Source: Escherichia coli
GTDB taxonomy: Bacteria; Pseudomonadota; Gammaproteobacteria; Enterobacterales; Enterobacteriaceae
NCBI RefSeq assembly: GCF_048403405.1
Contig: NZ_CP183129.1
Direction: 5' to 3' (one strand)
DNA: 64,000 nucleotides
The notes under the pieces are model-generated. The model made no database searches. It was given only the letters and a program-made list of their open reading frames with translations, and had not been told where the DNA came from. The position numbers and the translations under genes were made by a program. Every line of letters begins with the position of its first letter. The first letter of the stretch is position 1. Shown here in pieces: positions 7,930-37,685 of the stretch.

Positions 7930-8185
7930 CTTTTAATTCCTTCATGACAGGTAATGTAAGGTACGCGATGACAATACCATTTAATGATACCTTTTAAATA
8001 CCTTTGCGGTGAAAACTTGACCGCGGTAACATTTTTTCTGATGAATCGAGCCAACAGAAAACGCTGAAAAAACATCCAAAAGATGGAAAAACTCGCCTGT
8101 AAAGACCAGGATTATGATTGCCCGCAAAAGGTGGGCCAGGACAATCCATAGCCGATATCCAATCGGAATTTACGGGAGCATAGTA

Positions 8186-9238
8186 ATGACAGATATTGCG
8201 CAGTTGCTTGGCAAAGACGCCGACAACCTTTTACAGCACCGTTGTATGACTATTCCTTCTGACCAGCTTTATCTCCCCGGACATGACTACGTAGACCGCG
8301 TGATGATTGACAATAATCGCCCGCCAGCGGTGTTACGTAATATGCAGACGTTATACAACACCGGGCGTCTGGCTGGCACAGGATATCTTTCTATTCTGCC
8401 GGTTGACCAGGGCGTTGAGCACTCTGCCGGAGCTTCATTTGCCGCTAACCCGCTCTACTTTGACCCGAAAAACATTGTTGAACTGGCGATCGAAGCGGGC
8501 TGTAACTGTGTGGCGTCAACTTACGGCGTGCTGGCGTCGGTATCGCGGCGTTACGCGCATCGCATTCCATTCCTCGTCAAACTTAATCACAACGAGACGC
8601 TAAGTTACCCGAATACCTACGATCAAACGCTGTATGCCAGCGTGGAGCAGGCCTTCAACATGGGCGCGGTGGCGGTTGGTGCGACTATCTATTTTGGTTC
8701 GGAAGAGTCACGTCGCCAGATTGAAGAAATTTCTGCGGCTTTTGAACGTGCGCACGAGCTGGGCATGGTGACTGTGCTGTGGGCCTATTTGCGTAACTCC
8801 GCCTTTAAGAAAGATGGCGTTGATTACCATGTTTCCGCCGACCTGACTGGTCAGGCGAACCATCTTGCGGCAACCATAGGTGCAGATATCGTCAAACAAA
8901 AAATGGCGGAAAATAACGGCGGCTATAAAGCAATTAATTACGGTTATACCGACGATCGCGTGTACAGCAAGTTAACCAGCGAAAACCCGATTGATCTGGT
9001 GCGTTATCAGTTAGCTAACTGCTATATGGGCCGGGCTGGGTTGATAAACTCCGGCGGTGCTGCAGGCGGTGAAACTGACCTCAGCGATGCAGTGCGTACT
9101 GCGGTTATCAACAAACGCGCTGGCGGAATGGGGCTGATTCTTGGACGTAAGGCGTTCAAGAAATCGATGGCTGACGGCGTGAAACTGATTAACGCCGTGC
9201 AGGACGTTTATCTCGATAGCAAAATTACTATCGCCTGA
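8186..9238 (+). CDS. fbaB: Class I fructose-bisphosphate aldolase, 350 aa
   Basis: ORF 8114..9238; start moved to [10 protein letters not shown] to match the FbaB N-terminus as recalled. Confidence 0.85.
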
Positions 9239-9276
9239 TACGCCTTATACGAACAGCACTACCCCGTATGACGGAA

Positions 9277-9302
9277 AAGGCGTTTACGTCGCATCCGGCA
9301 TA
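9277..9302. repeat. REP-like palindromic element
   Basis: aggcgtttacgtcgcatccggcat resembles the E. coli REP consensus. Confidence 0.5.
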
Positions 9303-9323
9303 AAAACACGCGCACTTTGCTAC

Positions 9324-9352
9324 GGCTTCCCTATCGGGAGGCCGTTTTTTTG
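9324..9352 (+). terminator. Rho-independent terminator downstream of fbaB
   Basis: Imperfect stem cggcttccc/gggaggccg with 4-nt loop followed by T7. Confidence 0.65.
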
Positions 9353-9411
9353 CCTGTCATTCTGATTAATTTTCGAATTGTCGTTTTTGTGATCATTATC
9401 TCGACATTTGA

Positions 9412-11611
<2,200 letters not shown>

Positions 11612-30989: not shown

Positions 30990-31128
30990 AACGGGAAAGC
31001 CCCTCCCGAGGAAGGGGCCTTAAATAAGGAAAGGGTCATGATGAAGCTACTCATCATCGTGGTGCTCTTAGTGATTAGCTACCCAGCATACTAAGACTAC
31101 CAGGGCGGGGGAAACCCCGCTCTACCCT
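30990..31128 (-). ncRNA. Sib-family antisense sRNA (type I antitoxin), copy 1; ends approximate
   Basis: Minus-strand promoter-like TTGACA-17-TACTTT near 31135..31165 and hairpin gcccct/aggggc plus U-rich tail near 30995..31018; fully overlaps ibs copy 1. Confidence 0.5.
31038..31094 (+). CDS. Ibs-family type I toxin peptide, copy 1 (MMKLLIIVVLLVISYPAY)
   Basis: 18-codon ORF with SD aaggaaagggtc upstream; Ibs-like hydrophobic peptide. Confidence 0.75.
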   Translation: MMKLLIIVVLLVISYPAY

Positions 31129-31317
31129 CACTCCTGAAAGTATGCCTTCACGATAAGATTGTCAATCTGCAGGCTTTGCAGTCTGCGATCCTGCCAGCAA
31201 ATATTCTTTGCGAGACGTTACGCAATAATCACACTGGAAACTATTTTATCCGCAAGTCAGCGATAGACTGCATACAGGGCGAAAGGAGGTAAGCCGACGA
31301 TTTCAGCGGGACGCTGA

Positions 31318-31456
31318 AACGGGAAAGCCCCTCCCGAGGAAGGGGCCTTAAATAAGGAAAGGGTCATGATGAAGATACTCATCATCGTGGTGCTCTTAGT
31401 GATTAGCTACCCAGCATACTAAGACTACCAGGGCGGGGGAAACCCCGCTCTACCCT
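31318..31456 (-). ncRNA. Sib-family antisense sRNA, copy 2; ends approximate
   Basis: Same elements at equivalent positions in repeat unit 2. Confidence 0.5.
31366..31422 (+). CDS. Ibs-family type I toxin peptide, copy 2 (MMKILIIVVLLVISYPAY)
   Basis: Same position within repeat unit 2. Confidence 0.75.
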   Translation: MMKILIIVVLLVISYPAY

Positions 31457-31646
31457 CACTCCTGAAAGTATGCCTTCACGATAAGATTGTCAATCCGCAG
31501 GCTTTGCAGTCTGCGATCCTGCCAGCAAATATTCTTTGCGAGTCGTTACGCAATAATCACAGAGGAAACTATTTTGGTCACGCGTTAGCGATAGACTGCA
31601 TTCAGGGCGAAAGGAGGTAAGCCGACGATTTCAGCGGGACGCTGAA

Positions 31647-31790
31647 ACGGGAAACCCTCTCCCGGAGAAGAGGGCTTTTAATAAGGAAAGGGTTATGATG
31701 AAGCACGTCATCATACTGGAGATACTCTTAGTGATTAGCTTCCAGGCTTACTAAGAACACCAGGGGGAGGGAGAAACCTCTCCCTAACCC
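31647..31790 (-). ncRNA. Sib-family antisense sRNA, copy 3; ends approximate
   Basis: Equivalent position in unit 3; minus-strand TTGACA-17-TAATTT promoter-like element near 31800..31830. Confidence 0.45.
31695..31754 (+). CDS. Ibs-family type I toxin peptide, copy 3 (MMKHVIILEILLVISFQAY), IbsA-like but with an internal Glu
   Basis: 19-codon ORF in repeat unit 3; GAG codon read directly from sequence. Confidence 0.7.
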   Translation: MMKHVIILEILLVISFQAY

Positions 31791-31974
31791 TCACTCCTGA
31801 AATTATGTCACTCCGCCCTTAGTGTCAATCGACGGCTCTCCGTTCTTGCGAGGCGAATAGCAAAATTTTCTGCGCCGCCGGGCCTAATTCTGAAAGTTTC
31901 TTCGTTTGCTCTTATTTCATTATTGCAATCGGTATGATACCGGGCCTCAATAATTCTCTAAGAAAGGATTTCTT

Positions 31975-32634
31975 ATGAGCGAACAAATCACGTTTGCCAC
32001 CAGCGATTTTGCCAGTAACCCGGAACCACGTTGCCCCTGCATTTTGCTGCTGGATGTTTCTGGTTCTATGAACGGTAGACCTATTAATGAACTTAACGCC
32101 GGATTGGTTACCTTTCGCGATGAGCTGCTTGCCGATTCGCTGGCCTTAAAAAGAGTGGAACTCGGCATTGTGACGTTCGGCCCGGTGCATGTGGAACAAC
32201 CCTTTACCAGCGCCGCTAATTTTTTCCCGCCCATCCTGTTTGCCCAGGGCGATACACCAATGGGCGCTGCCATTACCAAAGCCCTGGATATGGTAGAGGA
32301 GCGGAAACGTGAGTATCGTGCAAATGGTATTTCGTATTATCGCCCGTGGATTTTCCTGATCACCGATGGCGCTCCAACCGATGAGTGGCAGGCTGCCGCC
32401 AACAAAGTGTTTCAGGGGGAAGAAGATAAGAAGTTTGCCTTCTTTTCCATCGGTGTTCAGGGGGCGGATATGAAGACTTTGGCACAAATCAGCGTTCGTC
32501 AGCCTTTGCCACTGCAGGGATTACAATTCCGTGAACTGTTTAGCTGGTTATCCAGTTCGCTGCGTTCGGTTTCCCGCTCCACGCCGGGAACGGAAGTTGT
32601 GCTGGAAGCGCCAAAAGGCTGGACGTCAGTGTGA
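31975..32634 (+). CDS. yegL: von Willebrand factor A (TerY-like) domain protein with MIDAS motif, 219 aa
   Basis: ORF track; DVSGS MIDAS motif at nt 32053..32067; matches YegL as recalled. Confidence 0.8.
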
Positions 32635-33392
32635 GCTGGCGTCTGGTCTATGCATCAACCGTTGGAACGTCGCACATCAGCGCGGACTTGCCTTGCCAGG
32701 ATGCCTGCCAGATGCAGGTTGCCTGGTTAAATGACCAGCAGCCATTATTGTCGGTATTTGTCGCCGATGGCGCAGGTAGCGTCTCGCAGGGTGGCGAAGG
32801 TGCGGAGCTTGCCGTTAATGAAGCGATGGCTTATATGATGCAAAAATTGCAGGGCGGGGAATTGGGGCTTAATGATGTCCTCGCAACGGATATTGTGCTG
32901 ACCGTTCGTCAGCGACTTTTTGCCGAGGCGGAAGCCAAAGAATTAGCTGTTCGCGATTTTGCCTGCACGTTTATGGGATTGATTTCATCAGCTAATGGCA
33001 CCCTGATTATGCAGATTGGCGATGGCGGCGTGGTGGTAGATTTGGGGCACGGTCTGCAACTGCCGCTCACGCCGATGGTAGGTGAATATGCCAATATGAC
33101 ACACTTCATTACTGATGAAGATGCCGTTTCCAGACTGGAAACTTTCACCAGCACTGAGCGTGCGCATAAAGTTGCAGCATTTACGGATGGTATCCAGCGG
33201 CTGGCGTTAAATATGCTGGATAATTCTCCCCATGTGCCTTTCTTTACCCCGTTTTTCAATGGGCTGGCGTCAGCAACGCAGGAACAACTCGATTTATTAC
33301 CTGAATTGTTAAAGCAGTTTTTGTCCAGCCCGGCGGTAAACGAGCGTACGGATGATGATAAAACGTTGGCACTGGCGCTGTGGTTACCATGA
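32631..33392 (+). CDS. yegK: PP2C-family Ser/Thr protein phosphatase, 253 aa, GTG start
   Basis: ORF track; GTGA overlap with the yegL stop; PP2C-like Asp-rich motifs (VADGAGS, GDGG); YegK (PphC) as recalled. Confidence 0.8.
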
Positions 33393-35329
33393 AACCCACT
33401 TTATATACTGCTACTGGTGAGTGCGTTACGCCAGGCTGTGAACTGGGCAAAGGTGGCGAAGGCGCGGTTTATGATATCGAGGAGTTTGTCGATAGCGTCG
33501 CCAAGATTTATCACACGCCGCCACCCGCCTTAAAACAGGACAAACTTGCCTTTATGGCTGCGACAGCTGACGCACAGTTGCTGAATTATGTCGCCTGGCC
33601 GCAGGCAACGCTTCACGGTGGACGAGGCGGAAAAGTTATCGGTTTTATGATGCCAAAAGTTTCTGGTAAAGAACCGATTCATATGATCTATAGCCCGGCA
33701 CATCGTCGCCAGAGTTACCCTCATTGTGCGTGGGATTTTCTACTCTATGTTGCGCGTAATATTGCTTCATCTTTTGCTACGGTTCACGAGCACGGGCATG
33801 TCGTGGGTGACGTAAACCAGAACAGCTTTATGGTAGGCCGTGACAGCAAAGTGGTGTTGATTGATAGCGACTCCTTTCAGATTAACGCCAACGGCACACT
33901 GCATTTATGCGAAGTCGGCGTGTCGCATTTTACGCCGCCAGAGCTGCAAACCTTGCCATCATTTGTCGGCTTTGAACGCACCGCGAATCACGATAATTTT
34001 GGCCTTGCGTTGCTGATTTTTCACGTCTTGTTTGGTGGTCGGCATCCTTATTCCGGTGTACCGCTTATCTCTGATGCGGGTAATGCGCTGGAGACGGATA
34101 TTGCCCATTTCCGTTATGCCTACGCGTCAGATAATCAGCGACGTGGTTTAAAACCGCCGCCACGATCTATTCCGCTGTCGATGTTACCGGGCGATGTTGA
34201 AGCCATGTTTCAGCAGGCATTCACGGAAAGTGGCGTGGCAACCGCGCGTCCGACGGCAAAAGCGTGGGTAGCGGCACTTGATTTACTACGCCAACAGTTA
34301 AAGAAATGTACCGTTTCGGCAATGCATGTTTACCCCGGTCATTTGACTGACTGCCCGTGGTGTGCGCTGGATAATCAAGGCGTTATCTATTTTATTGATC
34401 TCGGCGAAGAGGTCATTACCACCGGCGGTGATTTTGTGCTGGCGAAAGTCTGGGCAATGGTGATGGCGTCAGTAGCACCACCAGCATTGCAACTGCCATT
34501 ACCCGATCATTTCCAACCGACTGGCAGGCCGCTTCCTTTAGGCCTGTTACGGCGTGAATACATCATTCTGATTGAGATCGCACTGTCAGCGTTATCGCTG
34601 CTGCTTTGCGGCCTTCAGGTAGAACCGCGTTATATCATTTTGGTTCCCGTGCTGGCGGCTATCTGGATTATTGGCAGCCTGACAAGCAAAGCGTACAAAG
34701 CAGAAATCCAGCAACGTCGTGAGGCGTTTAATCGCGCGAAAATGGACTATGACCATTTAGTAAGCCAGATCCAACGGCTGGGCGGGCTGGAAGGTTTTAT
34801 CGCCAAACGGGCGATGATCGAAAAAATGAAGGACGAAATTCTCGGGTTACCGGAAGAGGAGAAACGCGCTCTGGCAGCACTTCATGACACTGCAAGGGAA
34901 CGGCAGAAGCAGAAGTTTCTGGAGGGATTTTTTATTGATGTTGCCTCTATTCCCGGCGTTGGCCCTGCGCGTAAAGCGGCGTTACGGTCTTTTGGTATTG
35001 AAACAGCCGCAGATGTTACCCGTCGTGGCGTTAAGCAAGTGAAAGGGTTTGGCGACCATCTGACCCAGGCGGTTATCGACTGGAAAGCGAGTTGTGAACG
35101 CCGTTTTGTGTTCAGGCCGAACGAAGCGGTAACGCCTGCAGACAGACAAGCGGTACTGACTAAAATGGCCGCCAAACGACATCGGCTGGAATCGACGTTG
35201 ACTGTCGGCGCGACAGAGTTGCAGCGATTCCGCCTTCAAGCTCCAGCACGGACCATGCCGTTGATGGAACCGTTACGTCAGGCGGCAGAAAAACTGGCTC
35301 AGGCGCAGGCTGAATTAAGCCGTTGCTGA
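33380..35329 (+). CDS. yegI: Atypical membrane Ser/Thr protein kinase with C-terminal helix-hairpin-helix region, about 646-649 aa
   Basis: ORF track; start may be 33380, 33383 or 33389, all overlapping the yegK stop; Gly-rich loop GKGGEGAVY, VAKIY Lys, HGHVVGDVNQN catalytic-loop-like, DSDSF; two predicted TM helices; HhH-like IPGVGPARKAALRSFGI. Confidence 0.8.
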   Translation: MVTMKPTLYTATGECVTPGCELGKGGEGAVYDIEEFVDSVAKIYHTPPPALKQDKLAFMAATADAQLLNYVAWPQATLHGGRGGKVIGFMMPKVSGKEPIHMIYSPAHRRQSYPHCAWDFLLYVARNIASSFATVHEHGHVVGDVNQNSFMVGRDSKVVLIDSDSFQINANGTLHLCEVGVSHFTPPELQTLPSFVGFERTANHDNFGLALLIFHVLFGGRHPYSGVPLISDAGNALETDIAHFRYAYASDNQRRGLKPPPRSIPLSMLPGDVEAMFQQAFTESGVATARPTAKAWVAALDLLRQQLKKCTVSAMHVYPGHLTDCPWCALDNQGVIYFIDLGEEVITTGGDFVLAKVWAMVMASVAPPALQLPLPDHFQPTGRPLPLGLLRREYIILIEIALSALSLLLCGLQVEPRYIILVPVLAAIWIIGSLTSKAYKAEIQQRREAFNRAKMDYDHLVSQIQRLGGLEGFIAKRAMIEKMKDEILGLPEEEKRALAALHDTARERQKQKFLEGFFIDVASIPGVGPARKAALRSFGIETAADVTRRGVKQVKGFGDHLTQAVIDWKASCERRFVFRPNEAVTPADRQAVLTKMAAKRHRLESTLTVGATELQRFRLQAPARTMPLMEPLRQAAEKLAQAQAELSRC

Positions 35330-35341
35330 GCCAGTTTTCAA

Positions 35342-36694
35342 TTAACGAAACACCACTTCCGCCCAGCGTGCCAGCCCGGCGGTGACGGAGCCAAAGTCAT
35401 CGCCGCCTGCAATCGGAATGCCCGGCAACTGTTCTGCCAGCGCCTTTTTAATCAGCGGTGAACGGGCGCTACCGCCGGTCAGGTAGATAACGTCCGGTTT
35501 TTCCTGGGCGTTATCCAGGGCCAGTTGCACCTGTTCCAGAATCCGCGCCAGTGGCTGGCTGAGGGCGCTTTCCAGCCCTTGCTGGCTAATCAGCGTAGCC
35601 AGTTCATCGCTGATAAACGGCAGTGAGGCGCGGGTTTCCGCTACGCTTGAAAGCGCAATTTTGCTCTCTTCTGCGCTACGTACCAGGCGATAGCTTAAAC
35701 GCTGACGCCAGACTTTCTGTAACAGGGCCACTTTTTCCGGTTCGCGGGCATCGCGTACCAGATCGTTAAGCAGACGACCGTTGGCACTACTGTAGAAATC
35801 ACTTTGCGCAGGGACGTCGTTGATGGCAACCGCATTCCACCACGGCAGAATCGGCAGGGCGATGCCTTTTTCGGTTTCGCCCCCCATGCCCAGTAACGGC
35901 ATCAGGTTTTTAAACGCCAGTGCGATATCCAGATCGTTACCGCCAATACGGCAACCACTGTGACCCAGCAGGCTGGCTTCACGATCGAGACGCGAACGCC
36001 ACTGCGGCCCCATCAGCAGCAATGAACAGTCAGTCGTACCACCGCCGATATCCACCACCAGCACCCGTTTTTCTTCCTGCAAGGTGGCTTCGTAATCCAG
36101 CCCAGCCGCGACCGGCTCGTACTGGAATACCACATCCTTAAACCCGGCACGCTTCGCCGCGCGTTCCAGAATCCCCTGCGCCTGGGTGTTTGCTTCATCG
36201 CCGCCAAGCCCCTGGAAGTTGATAGGGCGACCAATTACCGCCTGAGTAATCGCATCCGGCAGCTGTGCCTGCGCCTGCTGGCGAATGTGCAACATCATTG
36301 CGCAGACCAGATCCTCAAACAGCGCTACCTGCTGCGGTTTTAAGCCGCTGGCACCGAGGAACGATTTTGGTGATTTCACAAACCACACTTCTTCTGGATC
36401 ATCAATGTACTGTGCCAGTGAGGAAAGACCGAACTGCACGCTTTTCGCCGTAACATCGATATCTTCTTCGCGGTTATAACGAATCGCCCGACGCAACAGC
36501 GCCTGCGTTTCATCGTCGTCTGCCGGAACATCATGATGGCGGTACAGCCATTCGCTTACCGCTTCACGCGTTGGCGCGCAAAGCATTGAAGGCAGCAGCG
36601 TGCTGTCGTTTTCCATTTTCAGTAATTGCGGCTTACCGTCGCGCATGACCGCCACTGAACAGTTTGCTGTACCGTAATCAAAACCAATAAACAC
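35342..36694 (-). CDS. yegD: Hsp70/actin-fold ATPase-domain protein, 450 aa, GTG start
   Basis: ORF 35342..36757; start moved to GTG (VFIGFDYGTANC) to match YegD length as recalled; convergent with yegI with a 12-bp gap. Confidence 0.8.
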   Translation of the reverse strand: MFIGFDYGTANCSVAVMRDGKPQLLKMENDSTLLPSMLCAPTREAVSEWLYRHHDVPADDDETQALLRRAIRYNREEDIDVTAKSVQFGLSSLAQYIDDPEEVWFVKSPKSFLGASGLKPQQVALFEDLVCAMMLHIRQQAQAQLPDAITQAVIGRPINFQGLGGDEANTQAQGILERAAKRAGFKDVVFQYEPVAAGLDYEATLQEEKRVLVVDIGGGTTDCSLLLMGPQWRSRLDREASLLGHSGCRIGGNDLDIALAFKNLMPLLGMGGETEKGIALPILPWWNAVAINDVPAQSDFYSSANGRLLNDLVRDAREPEKVALLQKVWRQRLSYRLVRSAEESKIALSSVAETRASLPFISDELATLISQQGLESALSQPLARILEQVQLALDNAQEKPDVIYLTGGSARSPLIKKALAEQLPGIPIAGGDDFGSVTAGLARWAEVVFR

Positions 36695-36827: not shown

Positions 36828-37685
36828 ATGTATACCCTGAACTGGCAGCCGCCGTATGACTGGTCGTGGATGTTGGGATTTCTCGCCGCCCGTGCGGTGA
36901 ACGGTGTGGAAACGGTCGCTGACGATTATTATGCCCGTAGTCTGGCGGTGGGCGAATATCGCGGCGTGGTGACTGCTATTCCGGATATAGCCCGCCATAC
37001 TCTGCACATAAATTTAAGTGCAGGTTTAGAACCTGTTGCCGCAGAGTGTCTGGCGAAAATGAGCCGCCTGTTTGATCTGCAATGTAACCCGCAGATTGTT
37101 AACGGTGCGTTGGGCAAGTTAGGCGCGGCGCGGCCCGGATTGCGTTTACCCGGCAGTGTTGATGCTTTTGAGCAGGGCGTGCGGGCGATTTTAGGCCAAC
37201 TGGTGAGCGTGGCGATGGCGGCAAAATTGACCGCCAGAGTGGCACAGCTTTATGGCGAACGGCTGGATGATTTTCCGGATTATGTCTGCTTCCCCACGCC
37301 TCAGCGGCTGGCAGCAGCCGACCCGCAGGCATTAAAAGCGTTAGGTATGCCGTTGAAACGGGCAGAGGCGCTGATTAATCTGGCAAATGCGGCGCTGGAG
37401 GGCACCTTACCAATGACAATTCCGGGCGACGTAGAGCAAGCGATGAAAACGCTGCAAACTTTTCCGGGTATCGGGCGCTGGACGGCGAATTATTTCGCCT
37501 TACGTGGCTGGCAGGCGAAAGATGTTTTCCTGCCGGATGATTATCTGATTAAACAGCGATTTCCGGGAATGACACCGGCACAAATCCGCCGTTATGCCGA
37601 ACGCTGGAAGCCCTGGCGTTCTTATGCGCTGTTGCATATCTGGTATACGGAAGGCTGGCAACCAGACGGAACGGACGAATTGTAG
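36828..37685 (+). CDS. alkA: 3-methyladenine DNA glycosylase II, 285 aa
   Basis: ORF track; recognised AlkA sequence; C-terminus (…WQPDGTDEL) differs slightly from the K-12 protein as recalled. Confidence 0.9.
   Translation: MYTLNWQPPYDWSWMLGFLAARAVNGVETVADDYYARSLAVGEYRGVVTAIPDIARHTLHINLSAGLEPVAAECLAKMSRLFDLQCNPQIVNGALGKLGAARPGLRLPGSVDAFEQGVRAILGQLVSVAMAAKLTARVAQLYGERLDDFPDYVCFPTPQRLAAADPQALKALGMPLKRAEALINLANAALEGTLPMTIPGDVEQAMKTLQTFPGIGRWTANYFALRGWQAKDVFLPDDYLIKQRFPGMTPAQIRRYAERWKPWRSYALLHIWYTEGWQPDGTDEL

Follow-up and report, generated by a model that had tools for sequence, protein, structure and literature searches.

The window analyzed here, a 64,000-nucleotide (nt) stretch of Escherichia coli DNA (contig NZ_CP183129.1, RefSeq assembly GCF_048403405.1), contains on its + strand an open reading frame (ORF) that is E. 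coli yegI (33389..35329), the gene for an already characterized membrane-anchored Ser/Thr kinase. We found that yegL-pphC-yegI is a TerY-P-type vWA-PP2C-kinase triad, belonging to the TerY-P phosphorylation triads as one of their branches, and that YegI joins to its divergent kinase domain a predicted zinc finger, a two-pass membrane hairpin, and a coiled-coil stalk that holds a tandem helix-hairpin-helix (HhH) domain, here called (HhH)2. This architecture and the triad membership, taken together, can be put forward with high confidence. The composite explanation that we favor, with a rough probability of 0.45, is that YegI is a membrane kinase clustered by DNA, working within its vWA-PP2C-kinase cassette in DNA stress or in the encounter with foreign DNA.

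An earlier note on this DNA had placed the ORF at 33380-35329 on the + strand, and the ORF list and translation agree with it except at the start, as the GTG at 33380 lies 3 codons 5' of the annotated ATG at 33389. The true start is almost certainly this ATG, which gives the same 646-amino-acid (aa) protein that RefSeq annotates, and the residue numbers of the earlier note are therefore 3 too high; residue numbers throughout this text are those of the 646-aa YegI.

Much of the finding restates the literature and database names. NCBI calls many family members "helix-hairpin-helix domain-containing protein," and the JGI family name is [quoted passage not shown] which is presumably the description of COG4248. 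The idea of DNA binding is thus not new, being implicit in these names, and because the HhH is in public annotation and the topology has been published, the combination of a kinase with two transmembrane (TM) helices and an HhH was already known. In the YegI preprint by Rajagopalan and Dworkin (bioRxiv 10.1101/819920; according to the reference list of another paper, published in FEBS Lett 2020), the words helix-hairpin, HhH, zinc, and cysteine never appear, and the stalk and the vWA partner are also unmentioned there.

Domain architecture of YegI

Conservation was read from an alignment of 113 relatives of the same overall length as YegI, with 32-62% identity to it. The family itself is far larger: an exhaustive search of 1.84 billion cluster representatives returned 9554 relatives at E<=1e-3, of which 3187 also pass E<=1e-30, and the family exceeds 3000 clusters at 50% identity. 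As the motifs described below are conserved across the 113 relatives, they are under selection and not chance resemblances. A full-length AlphaFold2 model built from the same alignment reached a mean predicted local distance difference test score (pLDDT) of 95 and a predicted template modeling score (pTM) of 0.85, and both an HhH-type domain and a two-helix membrane hairpin are modeled.

The part of the protein that bears most directly on DNA lies at the C terminus, where the earlier note had reported a coiled-coil-like stretch followed by one HhH motif. The HhH itself holds up, and its being single does not: in addition to G523-V-G525, which lies in IPGVGPARKAALRSFGI (aa 521-537, nt 34949-34999), there is a second hairpin, G553-F-G555, that the note did not mention. 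With these two HhH motifs, YegI carries an (HhH)2 domain (34931..35101, + strand, aa 515-571), in which the two GhG hairpins are joined by a connector helix and which is modeled with high confidence as a five-helix domain. The hairpin glycines are kept in most relatives (G523 in 83/113, G525 in 103/113, G553 in 104/113, and G555 in 101/113), and the basic residues that flank the hairpins (R528, K529, and K566) are conserved. The coiled-coil-like stretch is likewise present, and its description can be refined on the basis of the model, in which it would form a cytoplasmic, antiparallel stalk with the C-terminal helix and the (HhH)2 domain would sit between the two arms. The outward arm (34697..34921, + strand, aa 437-511) consists of three consecutive helices (437-465, 467-485, and 487-511) in a separate model of aa 437-646 (pLDDT 97); short helices and turns with both hairpins follow at 515-571, and the return arm (35135..35323, + strand) is a single unbroken 63-residue helix, aa 583-645. 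This last helix carries the phosphosites S602 and S644, neither of which is conserved in the family.

Database scores for the fold are weak. Pfam HHH_5 matches E. coli YegI at an i-E of 0.0025; among the relatives, 36/113 reach E<=0.1. Every sub-threshold sequence match in the PDB lies in an HhH region, namely, that of L32e, REV1, Pol IV, or UvrC. Fold searches with the 210-residue C-terminal model were both dominated by the coiled coil. Foldseek gave a local match to yeast Rad51 (3lda; probability 0.97, 75 columns, E 0.55), in an output that does not show the part of Rad51 aligned; the N-terminal domain of Rad51 is an (HhH)2 domain. From the two conserved hairpins and these matches, we regard the HhH fold in YegI as well supported, short of rigorous proof.

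Between the kinase domain and the membrane lies a predicted zinc-binding finger (34283..34423, + strand, aa 299-345) with the pattern C307-x5-H313-x8-C322-P-W-C325. The CPWC motif that had been noticed near residue 325 is indeed there (aa 322-325, nt 34352-34363), and it is the sole part of the previously described architecture without comment in the literature found. C307, H313, C322, W324, and C325 are invariant in the relatives, and on this pattern CPWC is strongly predicted to be half of a four-ligand C-x5-H-x8-C-x2-C zinc site. The full-length model has strands at 304-306 and 314-316 followed by a helix at 323-329, with C307 and H313 placed on the hairpin and C322 and C325 at the N terminus of the helix, a geometry that, as read from secondary structure, looks typical of a treble-clef-like zinc finger. 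The C...H...CPWC of YegI aligns opposite the C-x4-C...CPYC of the TerY-P kinase of a tellurite-resistance (ter) plasmid, and because this kinase alignment runs through the zinc site, CPWC is the second half of a family zinc module. A linker (34424..34552, + strand) with a short helix (aa 351-360) follows, in which position 355 is W in 88% of the relatives and R in E. coli YegI.

The divergent Hanks-type kinase domain occupies aa 1-298 (33389..34282, + strand), with its G-loop at 20-25, K39, D141/N143, and D159-S-D-S162. All the motifs on which the earlier note had based its kinase call were located inside the ranges given there (GKGGEGAVY, 20-28; VAKIY, 37-41, with K39; HGHVVGDVNQN, 135-145, with D141; DSDSF, 159-163), and they are found in the relatives too, with K39, K52, D141, N143, and D159 invariant. 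YegI thus has the ATP-binding Lys (K39), the catalytic Asp (D141), and the metal-binding Asp (D159), and it has VGD-VNQNS and DSD where canonical kinases have HRD and DFG. The model shows a bilobal protein-kinase fold, for which the top Foldseek matches in the PDB are kinase domains, including those of PknB, CaMKII, BRAF, Src, and Aurora, with TM-scores normalized by target length of about 0.6-0.73. At the sequence level, a family profile matched the kinases TTK, RSK, and PknE among PDB sequences (E about 1e-5), and Pfam Pkinase was matched by 94/113 relatives at E<=0.001, while the E. coli protein gives no match. Searches with the single YegI sequence found nothing significant in the PDB (best noted, the N-lobe of NleH1, E 0.065) and, in NCBIfam, only weak matches to the kinase parts of lanthionine synthetases.

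YegI is active despite these departures: in published biochemistry, it autophosphorylates, K39 and D141 are essential (K39D and D141N being inactive), S162 is essential, restoring DFG at the DSD position is not tolerated, and Mn2+ is preferred (bioRxiv 10.1101/819920). The near-invariance of S162 (112/113) matches its published essential role. In the same work, the autophosphorylation kinetics are second order, consistent with dimer formation, the phosphosites are S153, S160, S162, S602, and S644, and an absent catalytic-loop Asn is listed as a feature of YegI (bioRxiv 10.1101/819920). The family consensus is H-V-I-G-D-V-N-Q-G-N in the catalytic loop and D-C-D-S-F-Q in the activation segment: N146 is present in 81/113 relatives where E. 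coli YegI has N145-S146 (33806-33826, codons 140-146), and position 160 is Cys in 97/113 relatives and Ser in E. coli YegI (33863-33880, codons 159-164). Because the E. coli protein deviates here from its own family, neither the "missing Asn" nor the S160 phosphosite is a family-wide feature.

The membrane anchor is a transmembrane helical hairpin (34553..34693, + strand, aa 389-435) made of TM1 at about 389-408, a loop at about 409-417, and TM2 at about 418-435. Kyte-Doolittle windows exceed 1.6 at 389-435, the sole strongly hydrophobic stretch of YegI, and about 390-435 is the only hydrophobic region conserved across the relatives; in the model, a helix at 389-408 and a loop of ~8 residues are followed by a helix that starts at 418 and passes through the membrane to residue 465. 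Published PhoA-LacZalpha fusions at 340, 390, 439, and 646 are cytoplasmic, and those at 414 and 432 are periplasmic or in the membrane (bioRxiv 10.1101/819920), a pattern from which YegI is a two-pass protein with both ends inside. Hydropathy, model, and fusions agree with one another and with the two hydrophobic helices first proposed (residues 393-434), and the fusions place these adjacent TM helices in the inner membrane with an N-in/C-in arrangement.

The yegL-pphC-yegI triad, its locus, and its relatives

The TerY-P phosphorylation triad was reportedly described by Anantharaman, Iyer, and Aravind in 2012 (cited in PMC4978471 and PMC11090510). In the CoCoNuT paper, a vWA protein resembling TerY and a PP2C phosphatase make up such a triad together with a Ser/Thr kinase that has a C-terminal zinc ribbon (PMC11090510). 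In the window, the three genes are adjacent and co-oriented: yegL (31975..32634, + strand), first of the triad, encodes by ORF list and annotation a TerY-type vWA protein of 219 aa whose metal-ion-dependent adhesion site (MIDAS) reads DVSGS; pphC, or yegK (32631..33392, + strand), the second, encodes a PP2C-type Ser/Thr phosphatase of 253 aa; and the full yegI coding sequence (33389..35329, + strand; 646 aa plus stop) follows. The best plasmid matches of YegL are TerY vWA proteins of ter clusters, TerY matches being found on 2330 plasmids, mostly in ter clusters and in genes annotated TerY-C or VWA. On a Klebsiella pneumoniae ter plasmid, the cluster ends in the order TerY (vWA plus TerY-C), PP2C phosphatase, kinase, and BLASTP relates each protein of the E. 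coli triad to its counterpart there (for YegL and TerY, E 1e-18 at 27% identity across 188 aa; for PphC and the PP2C, 6e-6; for YegI 202-338 and the kinase, 2e-5). YegI and its ter-plasmid counterpart both have the zinc module after the kinase domain. PADLOC gave no TerY-P match to YegL, PphC, or YegI and only weak generic kinase matches (PD-T4-6 and MkoA), a negative that is uninformative, since the canonical ter-plasmid triad also gets no TerY-P match.

Stand-alone antiphage TerY-P modules (Gao et al. 2020) are reported to have an OB fold in the position of the zinc ribbon (PMC11090510), and according to a commentary the modules of Gao et al. act against T7-like phages (PMC7699616). TerY-P triads have also been proposed as metal-sensing phosphorylation switches.

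Overlaps of 4 nt between pphC and both yegL and yegI imply that the three genes form one operon. The ATG of yegI overlaps the pphC stop as ATGA (33389-33392), which matches the description for non-K-12 strains (bioRxiv 10.1101/819920). In K-12, the oppositely oriented yegJ, whose product is reported to bind RNase E, interrupts the operon; from the ATGA overlap and from yegJ not lying between pphC and yegI, the E. coli that the window belongs to is of non-K-12 type. Dephosphorylation of YegI by PphC has been reported, and the cassette is barely expressed under laboratory conditions. Our scan of 31600-35500 for promoters and terminators gave counts no higher than chance.

Several complete E. coli genomes are 100% identical to the window over 31900-35400, and the locus is carried by 5416/5426 complete E. 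coli genomes, where it is annotated as yegL (vWA protein), pphC (PP2C phosphatase), yegI (protein kinase YegI), and a convergent yegD. One database entry (P0001, "protein kinase YegI") is a 100% match to the protein encoded in the window, and the remaining E. coli entries are 95-98% identical to it.

Outside E. coli, vWA and PP2C_2 genes precede the kinase in all 10 loci examined, with kinases about 29% to 60% identical to YegI; PF13672 (PP2C_2) is present in all homologous loci, and the flanks vary between all ten. Defense-type neighbors in a Piscinibacter locus include an SLFN-type helicase, MazG, McrA-like/NOV_C, HIT, SNase, BrxR, and JetB; those in a Chromobacterium locus include AbiH and a KAP NTPase, with TniQ nearby; GmrSD_N and HsdR stand beside the triad on a metagenome contig with Spo0E-like neighbors; and a Mesorhizobium plasmid locus has AbiEii and a UvrD-type helicase. 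The triad of a Sphingobium conjugative plasmid (RAC03 pBSY17_2) has defense-type flanks as well, with a GIY-YIG nuclease, a tyrosine recombinase, an exonuclease gene, and ATPase genes, and a Pseudomonas megaplasmid locus is embedded in plasmid backbone genes. Matches were found on 83 plasmids, of which 46 are typed as conjugative. Nine Escherichia "plasmid" records carry yegI at >90% identity; the 43-439 kb sizes and the annotation of three of these (NZ_CP114132.1, CP137936.1, and NZ_CP083887.1) suggest chromosomal segments on large plasmids or misassigned contigs. A search of phage genomes gave a single weak partial match, so the family is essentially absent from phages. Identity is >90% within Escherichia, and the next values below are about 62%, for some Klebsiella, and about 60%, for Betaproteobacteria; so direct a drop, across bacterial classes, implies that the family has spread horizontally. 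The composition profile of the E. coli locus shows ordinary G+C and no sign of recent transfer.

Domain-wise profile searches define a constant family core of kinase, zinc finger, stalk, HhH, and tail, whereas the position of the membrane anchor varies. In some relatives the hairpin is missing, and a single TM helix downstream of the tail leads into a long extension; in others a third TM helix and an extension are added to the hairpin. The extensions hold bacterial SH3 (SH3_3 and SH3_4), TPR, or LprI-like domains (longer members include P0149, P0170, P0171, P0175, P0202, P0220, P0224, P0248, and P0259), and in all these topologies the kinase and HhH stay cytoplasmic. A 719-aa homolog from Sphingobium sp. 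RAC03 (locus L018 on pBSY17_2, 7956-10112) has a C-terminal Zn_ribbon_Top1 domain after the tail (i-E 1.4e-7), a C4, topoisomerase-type domain that we regard as adding to this end of the protein another domain that binds DNA. Conversely, a kinase-less 293-aa protein found on conjugative plasmids (L013:5776-6657, Agrobacterium tumefaciens pAt, NZ_CP042276.1; L014:5719-6600) consists of membrane hairpin, stalk, and HhH and is 27% identical to YegI 428-630 over 203 aa (E 1e-20); on Agrobacterium plasmids its gene stands directly after hxsB-hxsC-hxsA, of the His-Xaa-Ser radical-SAM type, and before an SH3-domain gene. Since this protein carries it, stalk plus HhH is a separable module.

Two features of the surroundings of yegLKI are recorded here in their own right. 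The ~1-kb gap between mdtA and yegL holds three full-length tandem copies of SIB RNA on the - strand (31023-31165, 31351-31493, and 31680-31828; Rfam RF00113, 141-146 bits), which is the RNA antitoxin in type I toxin-antitoxin loci of the Sib/Ibs kind. We take K-12 to have two copies at this locus, SibA and SibB, so that this strain appears to have an extra repeat. Two genes downstream of yegI, a 285-aa ORF (36828-37685, + strand), which we take to resemble the DNA glycosylase gene alkA, has a single, unrelated HhH motif, LQTFPGIGRWTANYFALRG; the closeness of two HhH-bearing genes appears to be a coincidence.

Proposed DNA clustering of the kinase and its alternatives

In the explanation that we favor, the (HhH)2 domain would bind the DNA backbone near the inner membrane without sequence specificity, and several stalks on one DNA molecule would bring their kinase domains together. 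This proximity would permit trans-autophosphorylation of the activation segment (S162) and switch the kinase on, a step from stalk clustering to trans-autophosphorylation that is consistent with the second-order kinetics. PphC would reset the kinase, and YegL, via its metal-ion site, would be a partner or substrate passing the signal on. By analogy with TerY-P modules, the cassette would more likely serve to answer DNA that is foreign or damaged (entering phages or plasmids, or DNA stress) than to keep house. The parts of this explanation differ in strength: from its sequence features, the HhH domain probably binds DNA, and activation of YegI by DNA is a tentative and rather doubtful further step.

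The earlier note suggested that DNA or nucleotide sensing is coupled to phosphorylation, which is plausible. Consistent with it are several pointers to DNA: the conserved GhG hairpins with their basic residues, the Zn_ribbon_Top1 homolog, the OB-fold or zinc-ribbon modules of TerY-P kinases, and DNA damage upon overproduction. A role in conflicts is suggested by the defense neighbors, the conjugative plasmids, the horizontal spread, and the phage protection (T7-like) by TerY-P modules. As for the damage, one study lists YegI (at least 5-fold) and YegL (a strong phenotype) among the proteins that raise DNA damage when overproduced (bioRxiv 10.1101/354589). The neighboring efflux proteins MdtA and MdtB likewise appear there as raising DNA damage when overproduced (bioRxiv 10.1101/354589). 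Because they are listed too, the evidence from YegI is to be weighed cautiously, and membrane-protein overload may contribute to its phenotype.

A number of observations weigh against the favored explanation. Purified YegI autophosphorylates without added DNA (bioRxiv 10.1101/819920), so DNA is not strictly required, and the literature found reports no DNA binding and no DNA-dependent kinase activity for YegI or its relatives. Against solved (HhH)2 domains, the HhH region gives a structural match that is local and statistically weak (Foldseek E 0.55; Pfam i-E 0.0025), and the net charge of that region is only mildly positive (mean, +2.3). The extracytoplasmic SH3 and TPR domains of some relatives hint that part of the family may sense the envelope and not DNA. 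Three of the ten non-E. coli loci have ordinary flanks without defense neighbors, and in E. coli the cassette is near universal, at a fixed locus, and of ordinary G+C; an active defense system would not usually be fixed, barely expressed, and, in K-12, interrupted by yegJ.

Some of these points can be turned into other explanations, which do not all address the same side of the system and some of which could hold together. One takes the HhH as a localization device: the (HhH)2 domain would hold an active kinase on DNA, where DNA-bound targets near the membrane would be phosphorylated, and the switch would be a metal or ligand signal through the vWA/MIDAS site of YegL or an envelope signal through the hairpin. 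DNA-free autophosphorylation in vitro is what it expects, as are the proposals that TerY-P triads are metal-sensing switches, and DNA damage on overproduction of YegI or YegL fits an action on DNA-bound proteins; moreover, the SH3_3, SH3_4, TPR, and LprI-like domains that relatives have after an extra TM helix resemble true sensors. However, E. coli YegI exposes only about 8 periplasmic residues and thus has no obvious envelope sensor, and outside the kinase nothing in the family is as constant as the stalk plus HhH, candidate sensor domains included. We consider this localization role somewhat unlikely.

Binding of nucleic acid is given up altogether if the HhH is a protein interface, for stalk dimerization or for docking of YegL or PphC, as in ERCC1-XPF, where (HhH)2 domains serve as a protein-protein interface. 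The weak database scores and modest positive charge of the HhH region would then be of a piece, and so would kinetics consistent with dimer formation. We nevertheless hold such an interface to be very unlikely, for hairpins usually decay in HhH domains that do not bind DNA, whereas the GhG hairpins of this family are kept (G523 in 73% and G525, G553, and G555 in about 90% of the 113 relatives), and one lineage has even fused a second DNA-binding domain. The remaining explanation concerns purpose rather than mechanism, with the triad as a domesticated housekeeping module for stress signaling (stationary phase, metal or oxidative stress, or DNA damage) that has no part in defense against mobile elements. 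Its presence in 5416/5426 E. coli genomes at one locus of ordinary composition, the three homologous loci without defense neighbors, and homology to the triad of the ter cluster speak for such domestication, while a patchy distribution, in which different bacterial classes share about 60% identity, frequent carriage on plasmids, restriction and abortive-infection neighbors, and the tolerance of K-12 for disruption of the operon by yegJ do not, and on balance we find it unlikely.

YegI, PphC, and YegL are among the few eukaryote-like phosphosignaling proteins of E. coli, and the present analysis sets yegL-pphC-yegI firmly in the TerY-P family, with the zinc finger, stalk, and (HhH)2 domain as conserved non-catalytic parts. 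If YegI were indeed a DNA-activated kinase, a nucleic-acid-sensing Ser/Thr kinase would join bacterial immunity, and a very large family would be explained.

Comparison with PKR, TerY-P triads, and ComEA

PKR is a soluble eukaryotic kinase with double-stranded RNA (dsRNA)-binding domains that act independently of sequence, and it is activated by ligand-induced proximity and trans-autophosphorylation. The likeness to YegI lies in a kinase joined to a sequence-independent nucleic-acid module and in the activation by proximity that is proposed here for YegI; the differences are that homology is limited to the kinase fold, that PKR is soluble and binds dsRNA, and that the DNA dependence of YegI is hypothetical. 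YegI might even be a bacterial, membrane-tethered counterpart of PKR-type kinases that senses DNA at the cytoplasmic face of the inner membrane, which we think quite unlikely. Injected phage DNA, conjugative DNA, or broken DNA would in that case be captured by several (HhH)2 stalks, leading to trans-autophosphorylation; signaling through YegL would bring growth arrest or defense, with PphC as the off-switch; and hairpin, coiled coil, and (HhH)2 would make up a portable sensor of DNA at the membrane, reused without a kinase beside HxsBCA radical-SAM operons.

Closer relatives are the TerY-P triads themselves. The E. coli cassette has the same gene order as the Klebsiella ter-plasmid triad, all three of its proteins are pairwise homologous to those of that triad, the zinc module follows the kinase at the same aligned position, and restriction or abortive-infection neighbors are often present. 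In contrast, the zinc site is C-H-C-C in YegI and has four Cys in the ter-plasmid kinase; YegI adds the membrane hairpin, stalk, and (HhH)2 domain, whereas the ter-plasmid kinase (499 aa) has a short soluble C terminus; YegL lacks the TerY-C domain; PphC has 253 aa versus 577 aa; and for yegLKI the literature found reports neither an antiphage nor a tellurite phenotype.

For the C-terminal half of YegI, a parallel is ComEA, a membrane-anchored (HhH)2 DNA receptor whose HhH faces outward and which has no enzymatic domain. In both ComEA and YegI, the cytoplasmic membrane is the anchor of an (HhH)2 domain. In YegI, however, the C terminus is cytoplasmic, the HhH is placed between coiled-coil arms, and it is coupled to a kinase.

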